Below are positions 3,196 to 11,271 of a stretch of DNA of 32,000 nt, piece after piece. The stretch's first letter is position 1. Every line of letters starts with the position of its first letter. A program made the position numbers and the translations under genes. Source of the DNA: Alkanindiges illinoisensis DSM 15370 (GTDB taxonomy: Bacteria > Pseudomonadota > Gammaproteobacteria > Pseudomonadales > Moraxellaceae); NCBI RefSeq assembly GCF_000619845.1, contig NZ_JHUX01000003.1:1300064-1332063 (forward strand). Direction: 5' to 3'. The notes beneath the pieces are model-generated. The model did not search any database, was not told the DNA's origin, and saw only the letters and a program-made list of their open reading frames with translations.

Positions 3196-3285
3196 GGACG
3201 CAGCATGACAGCCAAAAGAGCGGGAATTATAACGAATTGAAAAGTCAAAAACTAATCAAACAGCTTAAAAGCCAACCCGTTGTGC

Positions 3286-3313
3286 TTGACAATAATTTTG
3301 AGGCCGCTAAGAT
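3286..3313 (+). promoter_or_regulatory. candidate sigma70 promoter for tRNA-Leu
   Basis: TTGACA (3286-3291), 16-nt spacer, TAAGAT (3308-3313), about 20 nt upstream of the tRNA 5' end. Confidence 0.45.
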
Positions 3314-3334
3314 AGCAACCCATAACTACTCCTG

Positions 3335-3421
3335 CCCGGGGTGGTGAAATTGGTAGACGCGGTGGACTCAAAATCCACTGTCAGAGATGACGTGTCGGTT
3401 CGAGTCCGACCCCCGGGACCA
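3335..3421 (+). tRNA. tRNA-Leu, anticodon CAA, class II (long variable arm), CCA encoded
   Basis: Hand-folded cloverleaf. Acceptor is CCCGGGG / CCCCGGG. U8, A14, G18G19 and A21 are in register. Anticodon stem is GTGGA/TCCAC with loop CTCAAAA. Variable arm is GTCA-GAGA-TGAC. T arm is GTCGG-TTCGAGT-CCGAC. Discriminator A then CCA ends at 3421. It closely resembles E. coli leuX as recalled. The 5' end could be 3334 if the extra G is retained. Confidence 0.9.
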
Positions 3422-3595
3422 TAATTTTAGATAATAAAATCAATAAGTTGCTTCTTCAATTACTTAATCCAAATATCTCATTAGTGTAAATTAACCAGCT
3501 TTTGTAGCTTATTTTCTTTAAACTTATTTTTCTTTCATGACATAGAGTTAATAATAAATCTGTAAAGATGAATTTAATGAACAAATTTTACTCAT

Positions 3596-3621
3596 AAAAA
3601 AAGCCCATCTTAACGATGAGC
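3596..3621 (-). terminator. rho-independent terminator (minus strand)
   Basis: On the minus strand: GCTCATC-GTTAA-GATGGGC (7-bp stem with one G:U pair) followed by T7. It lies 19 nt downstream of the stop of the 3640-3801 ORF. Confidence 0.6.
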
Positions 3622-3639
3622 TTTTAGTTTTATGCTGTA

Positions 3640-3801
3640 TTAATAGCCCATTCTTTTCTTACGATTAATTGTGATTTTGTCACCACTCTGACACACCCGG
3701 TGATTTGGATTAATCTGGTGTGTACGGTGATTCATTGAGCCTGTGTTTCTTGTAGTATTCGGATTAAAGCTGTAACTACCATGATTAGCAAACTGGGACA
3801 T
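3640..3801 (-). CDS. hypothetical small basic N/H/R-rich protein (53 aa), not in ORF track
   Basis: ATG (complement 3799-3801) to TAA (3640-3642). Product is MSQFANHGSYSFNPNTTRNTGSMNHRTHQINPNHRVCQSGDKITINRKKRMGY. A terminator follows directly, but the SD is weak (TGGAAA). No family recognised. Confidence 0.35.
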   Translation of the reverse strand: MSQFANHGSYSFNPNTTRNTGSMNHRTHQINPNHRVCQSGDKITINRKKRMGY

Positions 3802-4140
3802 TTTCCATAGCACTTAAAAACTTTGTTAATGCTAGATTAGCAAGGTGCTATGTTACTGACAAAGCGAGTTGTGTATTGCTTATTTATCCAGCAAAATTTA
3901 TTTACTGAAGCTGTCTTATTAAGTCATTAATTCTATTTGGTTCGCATTTTATCTACTGATATAAAACTTTACCTTTCAGGTTAAAAAAAAATTAAATTGT
4001 ATAAACAATCAAAGTTCAAAACTAAATTTTTATAAAAAACTTTAAGAAAAATATTAAATGATGATTCTTCTACTGATTTAATAAATTAACCCGCTTTATA
4101 GTTTAAATCGTTTTGTTTAAATGCGCTGGATTTTTTCTTC

Positions 4141-4341
4141 CTACCGTGCAATTTCAGGGTCATTAGCTTGGTCTTGCTTTTCCTCGCCTAGCAACATATG
4201 CAAATCTGTTCCGTATTCATCAACAAACTGCTGCGCTGCATCAGCATAGGCATCGGGTTCAATGGTTTTGGTTAGCGTGGTTTTTTCCAGAGCTTGGCGG
4301 ATTTCCTCAACTGTATGACTATCTGCCATATCATTGTTCAT
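4141..4341 (-). CDS. hypothetical small acidic protein (66 aa)
   Basis: ORF-track ORF with an SD-like GAGGA 9-10 nt upstream of the ATG. 16 D/E versus 5 K/R by my count. No family recognised. Confidence 0.5.
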   Translation of the reverse strand: MNNDMADSHTVEEIRQALEKTTLTKTIEPDAYADAAQQFVDEYGTDLHMLLGEEKQDQANDPEIAR

Positions 4342-4541
4342 TATTGGCTATCCTCACTGTGATATCTGGACAAGGGATTAGTAGGATGTATTAGGCCTAA
4401 TTTACAAGGTATTTCTACCTATACTATTTGCCATAATAACTTCCTGCCCCGCCACCCTTAATATCTGGAATATTTTAAGCGAGCAAGGCGGAGTTCTTTT
4501 GGACTAAAACTCGGATTAGGCTGTCACACCCCAGCATTAAA

Positions 4542-4769
4542 TTAGTTGTCTGTATTGCCAATTTCCTTATGTTCCGGTTCGTTATCGGTATGCTGATCCG
4601 GTAACTTCACCTTTGCATCCTGATTTTCCAGATGCGCGTTTTGCAATTGCTGTTGACGCTCTCCTTCAGTTTGGGGTTGATTAGGCTGTGGATGCTCAGG
4701 CAAGTTATTATCAGCGGTATTGCTATCAACAAGATTGTTATCGACGCTGCCGCTATTACTGGTGCTCAT
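4542..4769 (-). CDS. hypothetical low-complexity N/Q/D/E-rich protein (75 aa), probably disordered
   Basis: ORF-track ORF with SD GAGG about 7 nt upstream of the ATG. 21 N+Q, 14 D/E, 4 K/R, and no aromatic or Cys residues by my count. DNNL occurs twice. Confidence 0.5.
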   Translation of the reverse strand: MSTSNSGSVDNNLVDSNTADNNLPEHPQPNQPQTEGERQQQLQNAHLENQDAKVKLPDQHTDNEPEHKEIGNTDN

Positions 4770-5203
4770 TGTGAACCTCTATGATTTATAAAGTTAATTA
4801 ATTGAATCGAATCAACATAACTTAAAAATCAGTCTTTCTGTGTTGCACAAACACTTCAAAGCACACGTTTTTTATAATGCTCGGTCACTTCATGTAAAAG
4901 ACGTAACTTTTTATCAATTTCCAAGTATTTTAATGGACTATTTTTTGCACGCGTCACAAAATGACGTTCGTAAAGTATGTATTATAAATTTATAAATATA
5001 ACTACTTGAATTATAATCTTATTTTTTAATTATAGATTCCCCTTGAACTACCTAAAATTCATTGAAATTGATGAAATAAACACCATTAATTAGGTTCATG
5101 GCGGCAAATATTTATTCTGGACTATGAAGAAATAAAACTGTTTTTTTACCAGAACGGTAGCCGTATTTGAAGTATTTAAGCCTGAGTCTGAGGAGTACCA
5201 GAA

Positions 5204-6133
5204 ATGGCATTAAGAATCGTCACTGCTGCAGAACCAATGCGCGTGGACAACCTGATCGTGTTTATTTATGGCGATCCGGGTATTGGTAAAACCTCACTGG
5301 CCTTTAGTGCCAAAAACCCGATTTTGTTCGACTTTGACCGGGGTGCGCACCGTGCTGGCAAGTTCCGTAAAGATACCGTGCCCGTAAGTAACTGGTCTGA
5401 TGTAGCCGCTATCAATGCAGAAGATCTAGAAGGTTATGATTCCATCATTATTGATACCGCTGGCCGGATGCTGGATGTGATTATTGCGGATTTGGTTAAA
5501 GACCAGAAGAACTGCCGCAAAAATAGCAAGGAGCTGTCTATTCAGGGCTATGGGGCACTAAACAAACGCTTTAGTAGCTGGCTTAACCTGATTCGCTCAT
5601 TTGGCAAAGATGTAATTTTGCTGGCGCATGCGGCTGAGGACAAAAAAGGCGATGAGCTGATTATCCGCCCGGATATGGTTGGTGGTAGCAAGAAAGAAGC
5701 TTATAAGGTAGCCGACATGATGGGTTATATGACCACTGTGCAGGGTGAACAGGGTGCTGAAATTTCTCTGAACTTTTCACCATCCACTTCACATCATGCC
5801 AAGGATTCCGGTGCCATCGGCAATATGATTCTGCCCGGTCTGGATAAAAACCCGGCTGCACTGGCGGATATTATCCAGCAGGCCAAGGATCATATTAATA
5901 GCTTGAGTGAGTTTCAGGCTGCTGCCTTGCAGGAACTGGAAAGCTACCGCAATGAGTGCATGGCTGCAGAACATGCCGATGACTTGAATGACCTGCGCGA
6001 ACAGTTAAAGCCTGAGCATTTGTATCTCAAGGAAATGCGGCAAGCGCTGGATCTGGCCTTTAAGGGTTTAAGCCATAAAGTGATCTTTGTGGAAGGCGAG
6101 TTTGTTGATGATATGCATGACGAGGTGGCCTAA
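5204..6133 (+). CDS. Sak4-like / AAA_24 family RecA-fold ATPase with ~90-aa helical acidic C-terminal extension
   Basis: 309 aa. Walker A is GDPGIGKTS at residues ~23-31 and Walker B-like is SIIIDTAG. The N-terminal ~215 aa have the layout I recall for phage Sak4/PF13479 proteins. Strong SD GAGGAG lies 8 nt upstream. Confidence 0.75.
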   Translation: MALRIVTAAEPMRVDNLIVFIYGDPGIGKTSLAFSAKNPILFDFDRGAHRAGKFRKDTVPVSNWSDVAAINAEDLEGYDSIIIDTAGRMLDVIIADLVKDQKNCRKNSKELSIQGYGALNKRFSSWLNLIRSFGKDVILLAHAAEDKKGDELIIRPDMVGGSKKEAYKVADMMGYMTTVQGEQGAEISLNFSPSTSHHAKDSGAIGNMILPGLDKNPAALADIIQQAKDHINSLSEFQAAALQELESYRNECMAAEHADDLNDLREQLKPEHLYLKEMRQALDLAFKGLSHKVIFVEGEFVDDMHDEVA

Positions 6134-6135
6134 GC

Positions 6136-6807
6136 ATGTCTTCCCGCGCCTTGCACAACACGCCACTACGTTTGTCAGTAACCATGCTGGACACTTATGT
6201 GCATGGCATGGCCAATGAGGACATGAGTAGCGAGCAATTAGCGCATGAATTGTTTGCCCGCAAAAAGCCCAGTCAGGCCATGCGGGTGGGCACGTCATTT
6301 CACCGTTTTCTGGAAAAAGGTCAGCTAGAACCACAACTGCTGGCCAAACCGGACAAATATGGCTTTCACTTTATTTTGCCGGATGACCTCAGCGGCACCA
6401 TTGAGCTGGGCGTTATGCGGGAGCAGATTTATGAATGGCCTGTATTTGACAACGTGGTGCTGGTAGGCAAGATTGATGCCGAAACACCTGCCAAGCTGAT
6501 TGATCACAAGCTGACTGCCCGCTTCGACCATGAGCGCTATATGGACAGCCTGCAGTGGCGTGCTTATCTGGCCATGCGTGGCAAAACCCATTTTACCTAT
6601 CAGGTGTTTGAGCATAGCGGCCTGCCCACCGAGCCGGATGCATTGGGACATTATCCGGTGTTTATCAAGGATTATCACCGTCTGGATCAGTATGCCTATG
6701 CCGGCATGCAGGATGAAATCAGGGATGTTGCCCGTGATCTGTCCGAGTTTGCGCGGGTCTGGATGGCTGAATTTCGAGATTCTGAAATAAGAGGAAAAGT
6801 GGCATGA
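6136..6807 (+). CDS. PD-(D/E)XK (RecB/Cas4-like, no Cys cluster) phage-type exonuclease
   Basis: 223 aa. Motif order is LVGKID (motif II Asp), LIDHKLT (D-x-K), then LQWRAYL (QxxxY), characteristic of RecB-family nucleases. The start is 2 nt after the upstream stop. Confidence 0.7.
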   Translation: MSSRALHNTPLRLSVTMLDTYVHGMANEDMSSEQLAHELFARKKPSQAMRVGTSFHRFLEKGQLEPQLLAKPDKYGFHFILPDDLSGTIELGVMREQIYEWPVFDNVVLVGKIDAETPAKLIDHKLTARFDHERYMDSLQWRAYLAMRGKTHFTYQVFEHSGLPTEPDALGHYPVFIKDYHRLDQYAYAGMQDEIRDVARDLSEFARVWMAEFRDSEIRGKVA

Positions 6808-7421
6808 GCGTAGATATGATGATGGTGTGCAATGGCCGCGCGCTGGTTCCAGCAACCGAGCACGACTATGCCATCATGCGACAAACCTACCGGATTGGTC
6901 AGGTGATCAAAACGGAAACCAAACGTCAGGCAGATCGCAGCCTGCAACACCATCGGCTGTATTTTGGTGGATTGATTGGACTGGTCAAGGACTATTGGGA
7001 ACCCCAAACTGGGCTGGTACATCCGGCTGAAGTGAGGACGGCAGCATCGTTTTGCCATTATTTGCAAAGCAAAGGTATTGCATTATCGCCTGAGCAAAGT
7101 CAGGCGCTCCAGCAGGATTACCTGCAAAGGCTAACGCAAAAGCGTGCCGCCAAGCTGATTAATCCAATGCCGGCCAGCACGGCTGAGATTCATCGCTGGA
7201 TCAAGATTGAATGCGGCTATTATGATGTGGTACGCCTGCCGGATGGCACGATTGAAAAAAAGGCCAAATCCATTAGTTTCGCCAAAATGACCCAGGCCGA
7301 GTTTAATGAGTTTTATAAGGCAGCATTTGGTGTGTGCTGGCGCTTTGTGCTTAGCCGCCACTTTGAATGTGAAAGCGATGCAGAAAATGCAATTAATCGC
7401 ATGCTGGACATGGCAGCCTAG
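6804..7421 (+). CDS. phage protein, tentatively NinB(Orf)/DUF1367-like recombination accessory protein
   Basis: 205 aa with an ATGA start/stop overlap with the nuclease gene and SD GAGGA upstream. DRSLQHHRLYFGGL and SISFAKMTQAEFNEFY resemble the RSLDQNRKLWACL and STSRMRVGEFAELL segments of lambda NinB as I recall them. This is a weak, memory-based assignment. Confidence 0.6.
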   Translation: MSVDMMMVCNGRALVPATEHDYAIMRQTYRIGQVIKTETKRQADRSLQHHRLYFGGLIGLVKDYWEPQTGLVHPAEVRTAASFCHYLQSKGIALSPEQSQALQQDYLQRLTQKRAAKLINPMPASTAEIHRWIKIECGYYDVVRLPDGTIEKKAKSISFAKMTQAEFNEFYKAAFGVCWRFVLSRHFECESDAENAINRMLDMAA

Positions 7422-7442
7422 CTGTCCAGCGTGAGCCTTTTT
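7403..7442 (+). terminator. hairpin overlapping the stop codon of the 6804-7421 ORF; possible weak terminator
   Basis: GCTGGACA (7403-7410) pairs with TGTCCAGC (7423-7430): perfect 8-bp stem, 12-nt loop. The T5 run (7438-7442) is displaced 7 nt from the stem, so it is non-canonical. Confidence 0.3.
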
Positions 7443-7686
7443 CAAGTTTGCCTACTGCCCTGACCGCCGATAATTTGTTCAAATTAATTCAACAGCGTCT
7501 ATTTTATACAATCCAACCCATGGCGACATCTTATGTCGCACACCCGCTGCAATCACTTGGATTCCTATGTTTTAATCCCATCTAAGCTGTAGATAGAGCA
7601 CATCATCAAGGCTGAGATTTCAGGGTGGCGTGCATTTAAACATCACGTTTACAGGCATGTGATTACAGAGGTTAATCCAGATCACT

Positions 7687-7866
7687 ATGAAAATGATGAA
7701 TGTAAATACGCTGGCGTGGCTGGATGAGCTGACCAAACCTGTGCCAGAACATCAGCAGTCCCAGCGATTAAAGCGGGCACCCAATGCGCGCTGGCTCCAG
7801 CGTAAAAATGCCGAGCAGCGGGCCATATCCGATATTGGTTTTATGAGAATAAAGGTGAACAAATGA
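7687..7866 (+). CDS. hypothetical small basic protein (59 aa), below the ORF-track size cut-off
   Basis: ATG 7687 to TGA 7864-7866. Product is MKMMNVNTLAWLDELTKPVPEHQQSQRLKRAPNARWLQRKNAEQRAISDIGFMRIKVNK. The stop overlaps the ERF start in an ATGA junction. Its own SD is poor (AGAGG about 15 nt upstream). Confidence 0.4.
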   Translation: MKMMNVNTLAWLDELTKPVPEHQQSQRLKRAPNARWLQRKNAEQRAISDIGFMRIKVNK

Positions 7867-8540
7867 AAGTTTATCAAGCAATCAATGCAGTGCAGCGCGC
7901 GCTGTCAAAAGAAGGGATTTCCAAGGACAGAATGGCCAGCGGTTTTGGTGCGGGCTATGCATTCCGCGGTATTGATGATGTGTACAATACTTTAAGCCCG
8001 TTATTGTCTGAACATGGCCTGGTGATTATTCCCCGCTGTGTGGAGCGGCATGAATCCCAGCGCCAGAGTGGGCCAAAAACCCTGTACTTTGTGGTGGTCA
8101 AAATGGAATTTGACTTTGTTTGCGCCGAAGATGGCAGCAAACACACCGCCTGTACCTATGGCGAAGCGATGGATTCAGGCGACAAGGCCACCAACAAGGC
8201 CATGTCGATTGCCTATAAATATGCCTGTTTCCAGACCTTTGCCATTCCAACCGAAGGCGATAACGACCCGGATGCCACTATCCATGAGCCAGCACCAGCC
8301 AGAAAGCCTAGCCAGAAGCCGGTCAAGCAGAATATGCAAGGTAGTGATCTGAACAACAATGGTAGCAATGCCAAATCACTGCCCAGCATTCTGGCCGATA
8401 TCCAGAAAGCAGCTGATGTGACTGCGCTTGCTGCTATCCGTGATTATGTGGCGGCACGGCAGTATAGCGAGGTTGATGTTGGCGAAATCAAGAATGCGCT
8501 GAAATCACGCCATGATAACCTGATGCACAAAAAGGTCTGA
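7863..8540 (+). CDS. ERF-family single-strand annealing protein
   Basis: 225 aa. YAFRGIDDVYNTLSPLLSEHGL and GEAMDSGDKATNKAMSIAYKYACFQTFAIPTEGDNDPDA match the conserved blocks of P22 Erf (YKYRSCEDILEGVKPLL..., KGMDAAQVTGATSSYARKYCLNGLFGIDD) as recalled. SD AAGGTG lies 6 nt upstream. Confidence 0.75.
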   Translation: MKVYQAINAVQRALSKEGISKDRMASGFGAGYAFRGIDDVYNTLSPLLSEHGLVIIPRCVERHESQRQSGPKTLYFVVVKMEFDFVCAEDGSKHTACTYGEAMDSGDKATNKAMSIAYKYACFQTFAIPTEGDNDPDATIHEPAPARKPSQKPVKQNMQGSDLNNNGSNAKSLPSILADIQKAADVTALAAIRDYVAARQYSEVDVGEIKNALKSRHDNLMHKKV

Positions 8541-8575
8541 TCCGGTCTTTTTTGTTGAGGGAAGTTCCTGTTTTA

Positions 8576-8609
8576 AGCGGCCTGAAGCCCTGGTTTTTAG
8601 GCCGCTTTG
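8576..8609 (+). terminator. weak terminator-like hairpin after the ERF gene
   Basis: AGCGGCCT (8576-8583) pairs with AGGCCGCT (8599-8606) with a 15-nt loop. Only a short T run follows. Confidence 0.35.
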
Positions 8610-8847
8610 ACAATAGTTTTGGTAGGCATTTTATTAACCAGTTCCAGCTACCGCCAAGCCGAAAAATTTGTAGTGTTGCGTAATTTAATTCTGACTAAAA
8701 TCCTTGGTTTTACAGGGTATTAAAGAATTAATGAGCTAAAATATGAACACTACTACATGATTTTTCAGGAAAAGCACTTGTTTTTTTCTCAAAATGCATC
8801 ACTAATGACATATGACAAAATCATTTGTCACTCAGTAGGAGTGCCCT

Positions 8848-11271
8848 ATGTCCGAGACAACAATTCAAAATCCAACTCTTCCAGTGGAAGGTAGCCTGCC
8901 TTTACTGGCATTACGCGATGTGGTGGTTTATCCCCACATGCAGATTGCTTTATTTGTGGGTCGTCCAAAATCAATCAATGCCGTTGAAGTCGCCCGTGAA
9001 AATGACAATCTGGTATTTGTCGTTGCGCAAAAGGACTCACTGGCCGAAGAGATTGACAATGAAAACCTGTATCACTACGGAACAGTGTGCCGTATTGTTC
9101 AGGTCGTAAATCATGAAAATGATGACAACTGCATCAAGGTGCTCATTGAAGGCCTGTATCGTGCCCGTCTGGATACGATTGTTGAGCTAAATGACTATAT
9201 GCGTGCAGAAACCACAGCTGAGCCTGTGCCTGTGGCATTAAGCCCTGAGCAGCAAAAACAGCAACGTGAAACCCTGCAAGCGTTATTTGGCCAGTATGCT
9301 GAAGCCAAGTTACGCAATGCGCGTGAACTGAGTGCAGCCAGCGATAAAATTGAGGATTTGCTGGAACTGGTTTATTTCATCGCCACCCGTGCGCCATTGG
9401 CGATTGATGTGAAACAGAAGTTTCTGGAAGAAGCCAATATCACTGCGCATGTTAAAGAACTGATGGAATATTTAACCCAGCAGTCTGAAGAACAGCAGAT
9501 TGAGCAGAACCTGCACGAAAACGTGAAACGCCAGATGGAAAAAAATCAGCGTGAATACTTTCTGAATGAAAAAATGAAAGTGATTCAGCGTGAACTATCT
9601 GACATGAATGGCGGTGGTGATGATGACATTTCAGAAATTGAAAAACGTCTGGAAGAAGCCGACCTGCCAGAAGATGTACGCAAAAAGGCAGATGCAGAAT
9701 TCCGCAAGCTGAAATCCATGCAGGCTGCATCCAGTGAAGCCGCAGTTGTGCGCAACTATCTTGACTGGATTTTGAACACGCCGTGGAAAAAAGCCAGCAA
9801 GGTGAGTATCAAACTGGATAAAGCCCAGCAGATTCTGGATTCCGATCACTATGGTCTGGAAGAAGTTAAGGAACGCATTATTGAGTTTCTGGCAGTACAG
9901 TCCCGGGTGAAACAGTTGAAAGGCCCGGTATTGTGTCTGGTTGGCCCTCCAGGTGTGGGTAAAACCAGTCTGGGTGAATCGATTGCCAAGGCAACAGGTC
10001 GTGAGTTTGTACGTATGGCTTTGGGTGGCGTGCGTGACGAAGCCGAGATTCGTGGTCATCGTCGTACCTATATTGGTGCGATGCCCGGCAAGATTGTGCA
10101 GCACTTGTCAAAAGTGGGTGTAAAAAATCCGCTGTTCCTGCTGGATGAAATTGACAAGATGGCACAGGATTACCGTGGTGATCCAGCGTCCGCCCTGCTG
10201 GAAGTGCTTGATCCATCACAAAACCACAAGTTCAATGATCACTATTTAGATATGGATCTGGACTTGTCTGAAGTGATGTTCATCTGTACTGCCAACAGCA
10301 TGGATATTCCTGCACCGTTACTGGACCGTATGGAAGTCATCCGCCTGCCCGGCTATACCGAGGAAGAAAAGGTAAACATTGCAGAGCGCTACCTGATTCC
10401 AAAAGCCATTAAAGCCAATGGCTTGAAGGAAAAAGAGCTGACTGTAGAAGAAGACGCAGTCCGCGACCTGATTCGCCGTTATACCCGTGAAGCTGGTGTT
10501 CGTAACCTTGAGCGTGAAATCTCCAAGATTTGCCGCAAAGTGGTTAAGGAAGCTGTAACCAGTCGTTCAAAAAACATACACATTGATATCAATGTAAATA
10601 ATTTGAACGAGTACTCTGGGGTATATAAGTTTGACTATGGTCAGGCTGAAGATGACGCCCAGATTGGCCGCGTAACTGGCCTGGCATGGACCTCAGTGGG
10701 TGGTGAGTTACTGACCATTGAAGCTGCTGCTGTAAAAGGCAAAGGTATTTATACTGCAACCGGTTCGCTGGGTGATGTGATGCAGGAATCTATCAAGGCA
10801 GCAATGACTGTGGTACGTACCCGTGGTGACCAGTTGGGTATTCCACATGAACGCTTCAGTGATACTGACGTGCATGTGCATATGCCTGAAGGTGCAACAC
10901 CCAAGGATGGCCCTTCTGCAGGTCTGGCATTGACCACAGCTCTGGTGTCTGCCTTTACCGGTATTCCGATTCGTGCTGATGTGGCAATGACAGGTGAAGT
11001 AACCTTGCGTGGCCGTGCACTGCGGATTGGCGGGCTAAAAGAGAAACTGCTGGCAGCTCACCGTGGTGGAATCAAGCTGGTATTGATTCCGGAAGAAAAT
11101 ATTCGTGATTTGGCCGAAGTGCCGGATAACGTGAAAGAAGGTCTTGAAATCAGGGCCGTAAAAACGATTGATGACGTATTGCCAGCAGCTTTGGTACATA
11201 TGCCAGAGCCACTTGCAAAAGCGCCTATTGTTTCAACAACAGTTGAAAGCGATAAAGCTGCACGTCATTAA
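8848..11271 (+). CDS. lon: ATP-dependent Lon protease
   Basis: 807 aa with the N-terminal LON domain (LPLLALRDVVVYPHM), Walker A GPPGVGKTS, and the protease motif PKDGPSAGLALTTALVS with catalytic Ser. SD AGGAG is upstream. Confidence 0.97.
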   Translation: MSETTIQNPTLPVEGSLPLLALRDVVVYPHMQIALFVGRPKSINAVEVARENDNLVFVVAQKDSLAEEIDNENLYHYGTVCRIVQVVNHENDDNCIKVLIEGLYRARLDTIVELNDYMRAETTAEPVPVALSPEQQKQQRETLQALFGQYAEAKLRNARELSAASDKIEDLLELVYFIATRAPLAIDVKQKFLEEANITAHVKELMEYLTQQSEEQQIEQNLHENVKRQMEKNQREYFLNEKMKVIQRELSDMNGGGDDDISEIEKRLEEADLPEDVRKKADAEFRKLKSMQAASSEAAVVRNYLDWILNTPWKKASKVSIKLDKAQQILDSDHYGLEEVKERIIEFLAVQSRVKQLKGPVLCLVGPPGVGKTSLGESIAKATGREFVRMALGGVRDEAEIRGHRRTYIGAMPGKIVQHLSKVGVKNPLFLLDEIDKMAQDYRGDPASALLEVLDPSQNHKFNDHYLDMDLDLSEVMFICTANSMDIPAPLLDRMEVIRLPGYTEEEKVNIAERYLIPKAIKANGLKEKELTVEEDAVRDLIRRYTREAGVRNLEREISKICRKVVKEAVTSRSKNIHIDINVNNLNEYSGVYKFDYGQAEDDAQIGRVTGLAWTSVGGELLTIEAAAVKGKGIYTATGSLGDVMQESIKAAMTVVRTRGDQLGIPHERFSDTDVHVHMPEGATPKDGPSAGLALTTALVSAFTGIPIRADVAMTGEVTLRGRALRIGGLKEKLLAAHRGGIKLVLIPEENIRDLAEVPDNVKEGLEIRAVKTIDDVLPAALVHMPEPLAKAPIVSTTVESDKAARH

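Follow-up and report, generated by a model that had tools for sequence, protein, structure and literature searches.

Annealases of phages drive recombineering and shape the exchange of DNA between phages and bacteria. Surveys treat the types of phage recombinase as alternatives, one per phage, whereas the locus described here, a block of recombination genes at positions 5204-8540 of a 32,000-nt stretch of DNA from Alkanindiges illinoisensis DSM 15370 (the window), joins two of them under a constraint as tight as that on lon or queA. Phage recombination genes in bacterial chromosomes are best considered beside the defective prophages. In Escherichia coli, RecET is silent and varies between strains, and work by Bobay et al. 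in PNAS in 2014 is said to have found domesticated defective prophages to be under purifying selection. Such prophages, of which Rac with its recET genes is an example, consist of chromosomal phage genes, recombination genes among them as in the window, that remain without virion and integration functions (reviewed in PMC6379469). The block, which encodes a Sak4-like ATPase, a PD-(D/E)XK nuclease, a DUF1367 protein and an ERF annealase, is a domesticated prophage recombination module that is set apart from Rac and other defective prophages by its conservation throughout the genus, with saturated synonymous divergence (dS), rather than among strains within a species, and by the joining of a Rad51-like and a Rad52-like annealase.

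Temperate phages are known to carry modules with the first three families of the block in the same order. These are represented by Faecalibacterium phage FP_Taranis, in which gp10-gp12 are annotated as Sak4, PD-(D/E)XK and NinB and are followed by a gene for a single-stranded DNA-binding protein (SSB), by Aggregatibacter phage S1249 and by the Moraxellaceae prophage L135, which reads repressor ... Sak4 / x / nuclease / x / DUF1367 ... integrase, with prophage L134 arranged likewise. In complete phage genomes they are bounded by repressor and integrase; ERF is missing, and its place is taken by SSB, MazG or clamp-like genes, whereas the window copy stands alone in the chromosome and is passed on vertically. 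Many Acinetobacter prophages, like S1249, have the Sak4-nuclease pair, with the nuclease homologue directly after Sak4, and Gordonia phages pair Sak4 with a Cas4-like exonuclease. A second kind of module, in the Moraxellaceae-type prophages L216 and L217, pairs ERF with DUF1367, as does the window, and continues to an integrase with a tRNA-Arg gene adjacent; unlike the window, L216 has ERF before DUF1367 and neither Sak4 nor nuclease, and its ERF is too divergent to be linked to the window ERF by tblastn. The window ERF shares its family, by a clear Pfam match, with P22 Erf and with Pseudomonas Ssr/Rec2. Lambda Red (Exo/Beta) with Orf (NinB) offers the same logic as that proposed below, a 5'-3' exonuclease with an annealase and a mediator, and its Exo resembles the window nuclease in fold; the window has no sequence homology to Beta, no Gam and two annealases against one.

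We consider the block, with a probability of about 0.8, to be a recombination module that has survived from an ancient prophage-like element, was fixed in the ancestor of the sampled Alkanindiges lineages and is now a host operon under strong purifying selection. In a search of one genome per species (GTDB species representatives), the Sak4 gene was found at 83-98% identity in five other genomes: A. illinoisensis NFYY 23406 (L007), A. hydrocarboniclasticus H1 (L008), Alkanindiges sp. WGS2144 and two metagenome-assembled genomes (MAGs). All six genomes share the order queA / tRNA-Leu / o75 (a small open reading frame, ORF) / Sak4 / nuclease / DUF1367 / ERF / lon / SPOUT / LigB, and no internal stop interrupts any copy of the four recombination genes, so that the intactness reported for the window in an earlier note on this DNA, made from the sequence alone, extends to every genome compared. 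That note had also proposed a comparison of non-synonymous with synonymous divergence (dN/dS) over homologous loci, and the pairwise Nei-Gojobori estimates, at 0.02-0.065 for Sak4, 0.04-0.15 for the nuclease, 0.03-0.09 for DUF1367 and 0.01-0.11 for ERF, resemble those of the flanking genes for QueA (0.05-0.09), Lon (0.02-0.04) and LigB (0.03-0.07). The dS of the cluster genes tracks that of the flanks up to saturation, with values that reach and pass 1. In the neighbour-joining tree of each of the four genes, all chromosomal copies group together to the exclusion of the prophage copies, with the topology ((((WIN,L007),L008),L009),(L010,L011)), WIN being the window, which agrees with Lon and LigB except for the root placement of L010 and L011; GC content and GC content at third codon positions (GC3) of the cluster fall inside the host range. 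Synteny, intactness, low dN/dS, flank-matched dS and host-like trees together indicate that the block was acquired once, long ago, and has since been inherited vertically under purifying selection. The four-gene set was kept intact while at least five or six species diverged and was very probably adopted by the host for its own use, and domestication, one of the readings offered in the earlier note, is strongly supported by the synteny in six genomes, by dN/dS of 0.01-0.15 and by co-phylogeny with the host. The data show where the block came from, how old and how intact it is and that it is under selection.

The same data bear on a neutral, slowly decaying prophage remnant, whose genes would be intact by chance or by recent deletion of the rest. 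Such a remnant would be in keeping with the lack of an integrase or any further phage gene and with the low-GC spacer that adjoins the block, and it predicts dN/dS near 1 and frameshifts at such divergence. The observed dN/dS of 0.01-0.15 at dS up to above 1, the intact copies in six species and the host-like gene trees make it scarcely tenable. The related case of a recently deleted prophage with pseudogenised copies elsewhere, which had been named as fatal to domestication, is contradicted by the intact syntenic copies, the low dN/dS and the host-like trees, and flank-matched dS opposes the six loci being recent transfers of a single element.

A phage origin of the domesticated module is supported because its closest relatives sit in prophages with repressor and integrase and because tRNA-Leu(CAA), which forms its left boundary (3335..3421, plus strand; ARAGORN and Rfam), is an integration site in Acinetobacter baumannii. 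Prophage copies from the same bacterial group are 75% (Sak4), 60% (nuclease) and 71-74% (DUF1367) identical to those of the window, and the closest ERF outside Alkanindiges (L054, 70% identity) lies between repressor and integrase without Sak4. Alongside these prophage relatives, the second mark of a domesticated remnant is the absence of integration, lysis and virion genes: nothing that codes for an integrase, a repressor, an SSB, replication, lysis or the virion was found anywhere in the window, and the flanks and the remainder consist of housekeeping genes. The tRNA-Leu(CAA) gene is divergent from queA across the Moraxellaceae and adjoins it in A. baumannii, Aquirhabdus and one MAG. This tRNA gene is an integration hotspot in the family, as judged from the A. 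baumannii relative, because an integrase-bearing island sits at its 3' end there: in locus L221 (8509-9819, GCA_040602535.1) a tyrosine integrase lies directly at the 3' end of tRNA-Leu(CAA), and the island past it holds Abi_alpha, a Toprim primase and a pRha-domain protein.

The adjacent tRNA gene, an att site in a relative, would also suit the repeated insertion of a mobile integrative element, or of a phage satellite, at the tRNA-Leu of different Alkanindiges species. The block has neither integrase nor excisionase, replication or packaging genes, no convincing att sites emerged when direct repeats of the tRNA 3' end were sought, the dS values are those of the flanks, the trees agree with the host phylogeny and no copy was seen in 2.9 million viral contigs. 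A repeatedly inserting element is therefore very unlikely, and the satellite-like element considered in the earlier note, for which integrase, att repeats and replication or packaging-hijack genes are all missing, found no support.

A further possibility is that the block is kept for action against, or interplay with, phages and not for general host DNA repair. It could hinder recombination-dependent phage replication, serve as a decoy or trigger for recombinase-sensing immunity, or boost recombination with superinfecting phages. Phage recombinases are recurrent targets and triggers in such conflicts, as with AbiK and SaPI2 Stl2 (PMC8093625, PMC11846896). The block stands at a tRNA hotspot that bears the Abi_alpha island in A. 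baumannii, and the sample that contains an exact match to the window has, on a prophage-type contig, a paralogous module of nuclease and DUF1367 as well. Defence loci are expected to turn over rapidly, whereas this block is conserved and evolves at a pace like that of housekeeping genes; it has no toxin-like or effector gene, and none of the seven proteins tested has a PADLOC match, so that membership of a known defence system, one form of the anti-phage activity suggested earlier, was not upheld. We rate a role against phages as rather unlikely overall, while giving it more weight than the other alternatives to the domesticated host operon.

The identities of the four proteins, which underlie the reading of the block as a recombination module, were examined one by one. 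The first ORF (5204-6133, plus strand, 309 aa) matches PF13479 (AAA_24; E 6.7e-37, 127.7 bits, cutoff 27) and phrog_124 (Sak4-like; E 3e-54) and has the Walker A motif GDPGIGKT (residues 23-30) and the Walker B motif IIIDT (81-85), of which P25, G26, G28, K29, D84 and T85 are invariant in the alignment of homologues; the proposed Sak4-like AAA_24 identity is upheld by both profiles and by the motifs. The protein shares 45% identity with Sak4 of Acinetobacter phage Vieuvirus B1251, and as a Sak4 it would be expected to bind and anneal single-stranded DNA (ssDNA) in an ATP-dependent manner. It is a RecA-core ATPase with a helical C-terminal region and an acidic tail. This extension had been regarded as distinctive, a point that did not survive comparison: phage Sak4 homologues of 297-373 aa have it, and the phrog_124 profile spans 382 positions. 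At 309 aa, the ATPase exceeds the size criterion for a short, core-only Sak4 of <290 aa (Lopes et al. 2010, PMC2896510), and the phrog_124 proteins of phages from Acinetobacter, Aggregatibacter and Faecalibacterium likewise have 297-373 aa. As far as the homologues reveal, the helical region is a trait of a long Sak4 sub-type and not of a separate family; the acidic last residues are kept only loosely among orthologues.

The second ORF (6136-6807, plus strand, 223 aa) belongs to phrog_34697, and its Pfam matches stay below threshold, the best being Exo5 (E 0.027, 14.4 bits, cutoff 25). D114, D123-x-K125 and Q140xxxY144 are invariant across 28 homologues. The AlphaFold model (pLDDT 88, pTM 0.83) was matched by Foldseek to LHK-Exo (3sz4), RecE (3h4r), Cas4 SSO0001 (4ic1) and lambda exonuclease (1avq), with probabilities of 0.98-1.0 and moderate TM values of 0.41-0.47; a sequence profile run against PDB sequences gave chance matches only. 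The RecB-family-type PD-(D/E)XK nuclease named in the earlier note is thus recovered from the PD-(D/E)XK and QxxxY motifs and the fold matches, without a curated profile match, and judging from the model the protein is a nuclease of the lambda-Exo/RecE/Cas4 kind.

The third ORF (6804-7421, plus strand, 205 aa) had been labelled NinB/DUF1367-like, and the two halves of this label fared differently. Membership of DUF1367 is clear (PF07105, E 5.4e-42), and the Pfam match is to this family and not to the Pfam NinB model. The link to NinB comes from phrog_319, which is labelled NinB/Orf (E 3.8e-41), and from a weak fold match to lambda NinB (1pc6), which appears at ranks 5 and 8 of the Foldseek results with TMt 0.42-0.47 and a probability that, although the highest among the top structure matches, is only 0.38-0.47. 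A profile of the protein run against PDB sequences did not find 1pc6 and gave chance matches only. A DUF1367 protein of 100% identity and QueA bear the name of A. illinoisensis.

The fifth ORF (7863-8540, plus strand, 225 aa) matches PF04404 (ERF) over profile positions 1-148 of 153 (E 2.8e-20, 73.3 bits, cutoff 25) and phrog_155 (E 1.4e-37), which upholds the ERF assignment. ERF is a member of the Rad52-like superfamily (PMC2896510). In the alignment of six species its N-terminal ~150 aa are almost invariant. A homologue in Yersinia phage vB_YenM_30.14 (OM046629.1, 57% identical) is annotated as 'single-stranded DNA-binding protein' and looks mis-annotated.

A small basic ORF of 59 aa (o59; 7687-7866, plus strand) overlaps the start of ERF. 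It matches no family, is 98% identical in L008, appears as a divergent 71-aa variant in L007 and L002 and is absent from L009-L011; it was counted as part of the block at first, and its variability and its absence from three of six genomes place it outside the core. In the segment comprising o59 and ERF, the window is nearer to A. hydrocarboniclasticus L008 (ERF dS 0.24, o59 98%) than to A. illinoisensis NFYY 23406 (ERF dS 0.38, o59 67%), which is the closer of the two elsewhere, a pattern that may reflect a local exchange of alleles among lineages. L010 and L011, the most divergent of the genomes (L215 11802-11975), have ~300 extra bases between ERF and lon, which code for a 57-aa ORF with a CPxCG-type zinc-ribbon motif that the window lacks.

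ORF calls on the window returned all five ORFs at the coordinates and on the strand that the earlier note had given. Direct reading of the sequence confirmed the 2-nt gap between the first two (TAA gc ATG) and both ATGA overlaps. The picture of five tightly packed ORFs holds for these junctions and breaks down between DUF1367 and the 59-aa ORF, where 265 nt (7422-7686) are non-coding.

The joining of Sak4 and ERF was examined with hidden Markov models (HMMs) and jackhmmer in flanks of up to 10 kb, in samples drawn from relatives of the window proteins. ERF was found in the flanks of none of ~125 Sak4-bearing phage loci (26-75% identity), and Sak4 at none of 160 ERF loci (0 of 80 from IMG/VR and 0 of 80 from metagenomes), counts that very divergent ERFs could escape. 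A Pfam scan of 118 neighbour-gene clusters of the Sak4 loci covered the best 25 of 58 families, and the gap that it left for weak ERFs was covered by the HMMs and jackhmmer. A pattern search of viral contigs with DUF1367 as query found nothing, and the literature surveys of phage recombinases yielded no statement on the co-occurrence of Sak4 and ERF. In these samples the pairing is as unusual as had been supposed, and the search of phages and prophages for the same gene order found the four-gene combination in the Alkanindiges locus only. In related Moraxellaceae prophages, DUF1367 is the constant partner and Sak4 with nuclease or ERF are alternatives, since these prophages carry either Sak4, nuclease and DUF1367 or ERF and DUF1367, and none carries both.

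This alternation, together with the fact that the phage relatives of the window ERF come from other phages than those of Sak4, could mean that only one annealase matters and that the block fuses remnants of two prophages, the second recombinase being carried along, for example by co-transcription. A variable spacer of 200-490 nt with its own palindrome, which parts DUF1367 from ERF, fits the same idea. Constraint on Sak4 and on ERF alike is as strong as on housekeeping genes, the N-terminal domain of ERF hardly varies, and hitch-hiking gives no protection from non-synonymous change over dS > 1; a passenger annealase is highly improbable.

Of the prophages that resemble the domesticated operon, L134 (contig SRR3313971_300) comes from the run that also gave L001, the exact match to the window, and carries a nuclease (60%), an HNH gene, DUF1367 (74%) and a sliding-clamp/RusA-like 193-aa protein. 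With both in the same sample, a domesticated and a mobile module seem, from their sequences, to coexist in one strain. In L135 the recombination module is separated from the integrase by an inserted IS605 OrfB/TnpB (Cas12f-like) gene (7896-9014).

Upstream of the operon, a low-GC (~37%) spacer of ~1.8 kb (3422..5203), in which no integrase remnant was found, separates tRNA-Leu from Sak4; it contains two small, acidic, low-complexity ORFs on the minus strand, o66 (4141-4341) and o75 (4542-4769), as well as the upstream control region of the operon. The o75 gene, which is divergent from Sak4 and has a control region in common with it, occurs in each of the six genomes, at dN/dS of ~0.04-0.21; it has no match in NCBIfam or PADLOC and no homologue among the prophage loci. 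On the right, the housekeeping boundary is the lon protease gene (8848..11271, plus strand), identified by Pfam domains and syntenic in six of six genomes. Over 3200-9000, the tRNA was the sole RNA family matched by Rfam.

Two candidate operators or hairpins stand in the non-coding parts of the block and its control region. The palindrome CGWCA-N5-TGWCG occurs exactly twice in the 32-kb window, against 0.01 expected, and six times in 2.76 Mb of other loci, and is absent from the related prophage modules. Copy 1 (CGTCA-N5-TGACG, 4952..4966) lies ~250 nt upstream of the Sak4 start and holds its position in all six genomes; copy 2 (CGACA-N5-TGTCG, 7524..7538) lies in the DUF1367-ERF spacer and is exact in five of six species, with one arm mismatch in L011. 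Arm changes across orthologous loci are symmetric (T..A to A..T). The palindromes may serve as an operator common to both sites or form a small hairpin, and the occurrence of one conserved palindrome before both Sak4 and ERF suggests co-regulation of the two halves of the block. Conserved non-coding blocks are also visible in the aligned spacer upstream of Sak4, among them CACTTCATGTAAAAGACGTAACTTTTTATCAA at 4886-4925. The part at ~4900-4921 was considered as a UmuDAb operator, for which the Acinetobacter site is TTGA-N4-GTAAC-N4-TCAA (PMC11332147), and was rejected: it contains GTAAC-TTTTTA-TCAA, with the spacing off and the left arm missing, and the core is not retained in L010 and L011. Upstream of lon, a repeat search found a GC-rich inverted repeat (AAGCGGCCTGAA / TTTAGGCCGCTT) followed by TTTG (8575..8607, plus strand), a possible terminator of the operon, which is conserved in the closer genomes and was not called by the terminator scan. 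The scan for promoters and terminators gave sites no more numerous than in shuffled sequence.

For the role of the domesticated module in its host we infer, by analogy, that end resection with strand annealing is likeliest. A mechanism can be modelled on lambda Red/Orf and on the characterised Sak4 of HK620, an ATP-dependent annealase that needs its cognate SSB for good activity (PMC5928155). The PD-(D/E)XK nuclease would resect double-strand ends 5'->3' and so lay bare 3' single strands; the Sak4 ATPase with its RecA core and a Rad52-like ERF ring would bind the ssDNA and anneal it to complementary ssDNA; and the DUF1367/NinB-like protein would, like lambda Orf, be the mediator on DNA coated with SSB. 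The host would thereby gain single-strand annealing independent of RecA/RecFOR, for the repair of breaks and forks or for the uptake of foreign or transforming DNA.

Several points weigh against an ancient prophage module turned host operon, or against parts of it. The comparison took in six genomes, a small sample, and no empty site was seen, since the outgroups examined outside Alkanindiges do not have queA next to lon. Transcription of the operon runs from the tRNA side to lon, and in L135 and L216 the modules point towards the integrase and the att/tRNA end, an orientation that leaves a simple history of a remnant at attL/tRNA incomplete. No SSB family was matched in the cluster or its flanks, and Sak4 usually has an SSB neighbour, with ~80% of sak4 genes adjoining an ssb gene (PMC5928155). 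The putative NinB-like role of DUF1367 goes back to the PHROG grouping and the weak fold match. Purifying selection, as estimated from dN/dS, tells that the genes matter and not for what.

At the usual SSB place beside Sak4 stands ERF, which invites the idea that the two cooperate. On this tentative proposal, against which the odds are considerable, Sak4 (Rad51-paralogue-like) and ERF (Rad52-like) would act together in a core-genome pathway with the NinB-like mediator, the exonuclease and a host regulator on both palindromes, and ERF would replace the SSB partner. If true, this would be a bacterial counterpart of the cooperation between Rad51 paralogues and Rad52. The block is a clean example of the deep domestication of prophage genes. 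It raises the questions of whether RecA-core and Rad52-like annealases cooperate or divide the labour, of what a bacterium gains from a RecA-independent annealing pathway, and of whether host-adapted modules of this kind may serve as recombineering tools for the Moraxellaceae.

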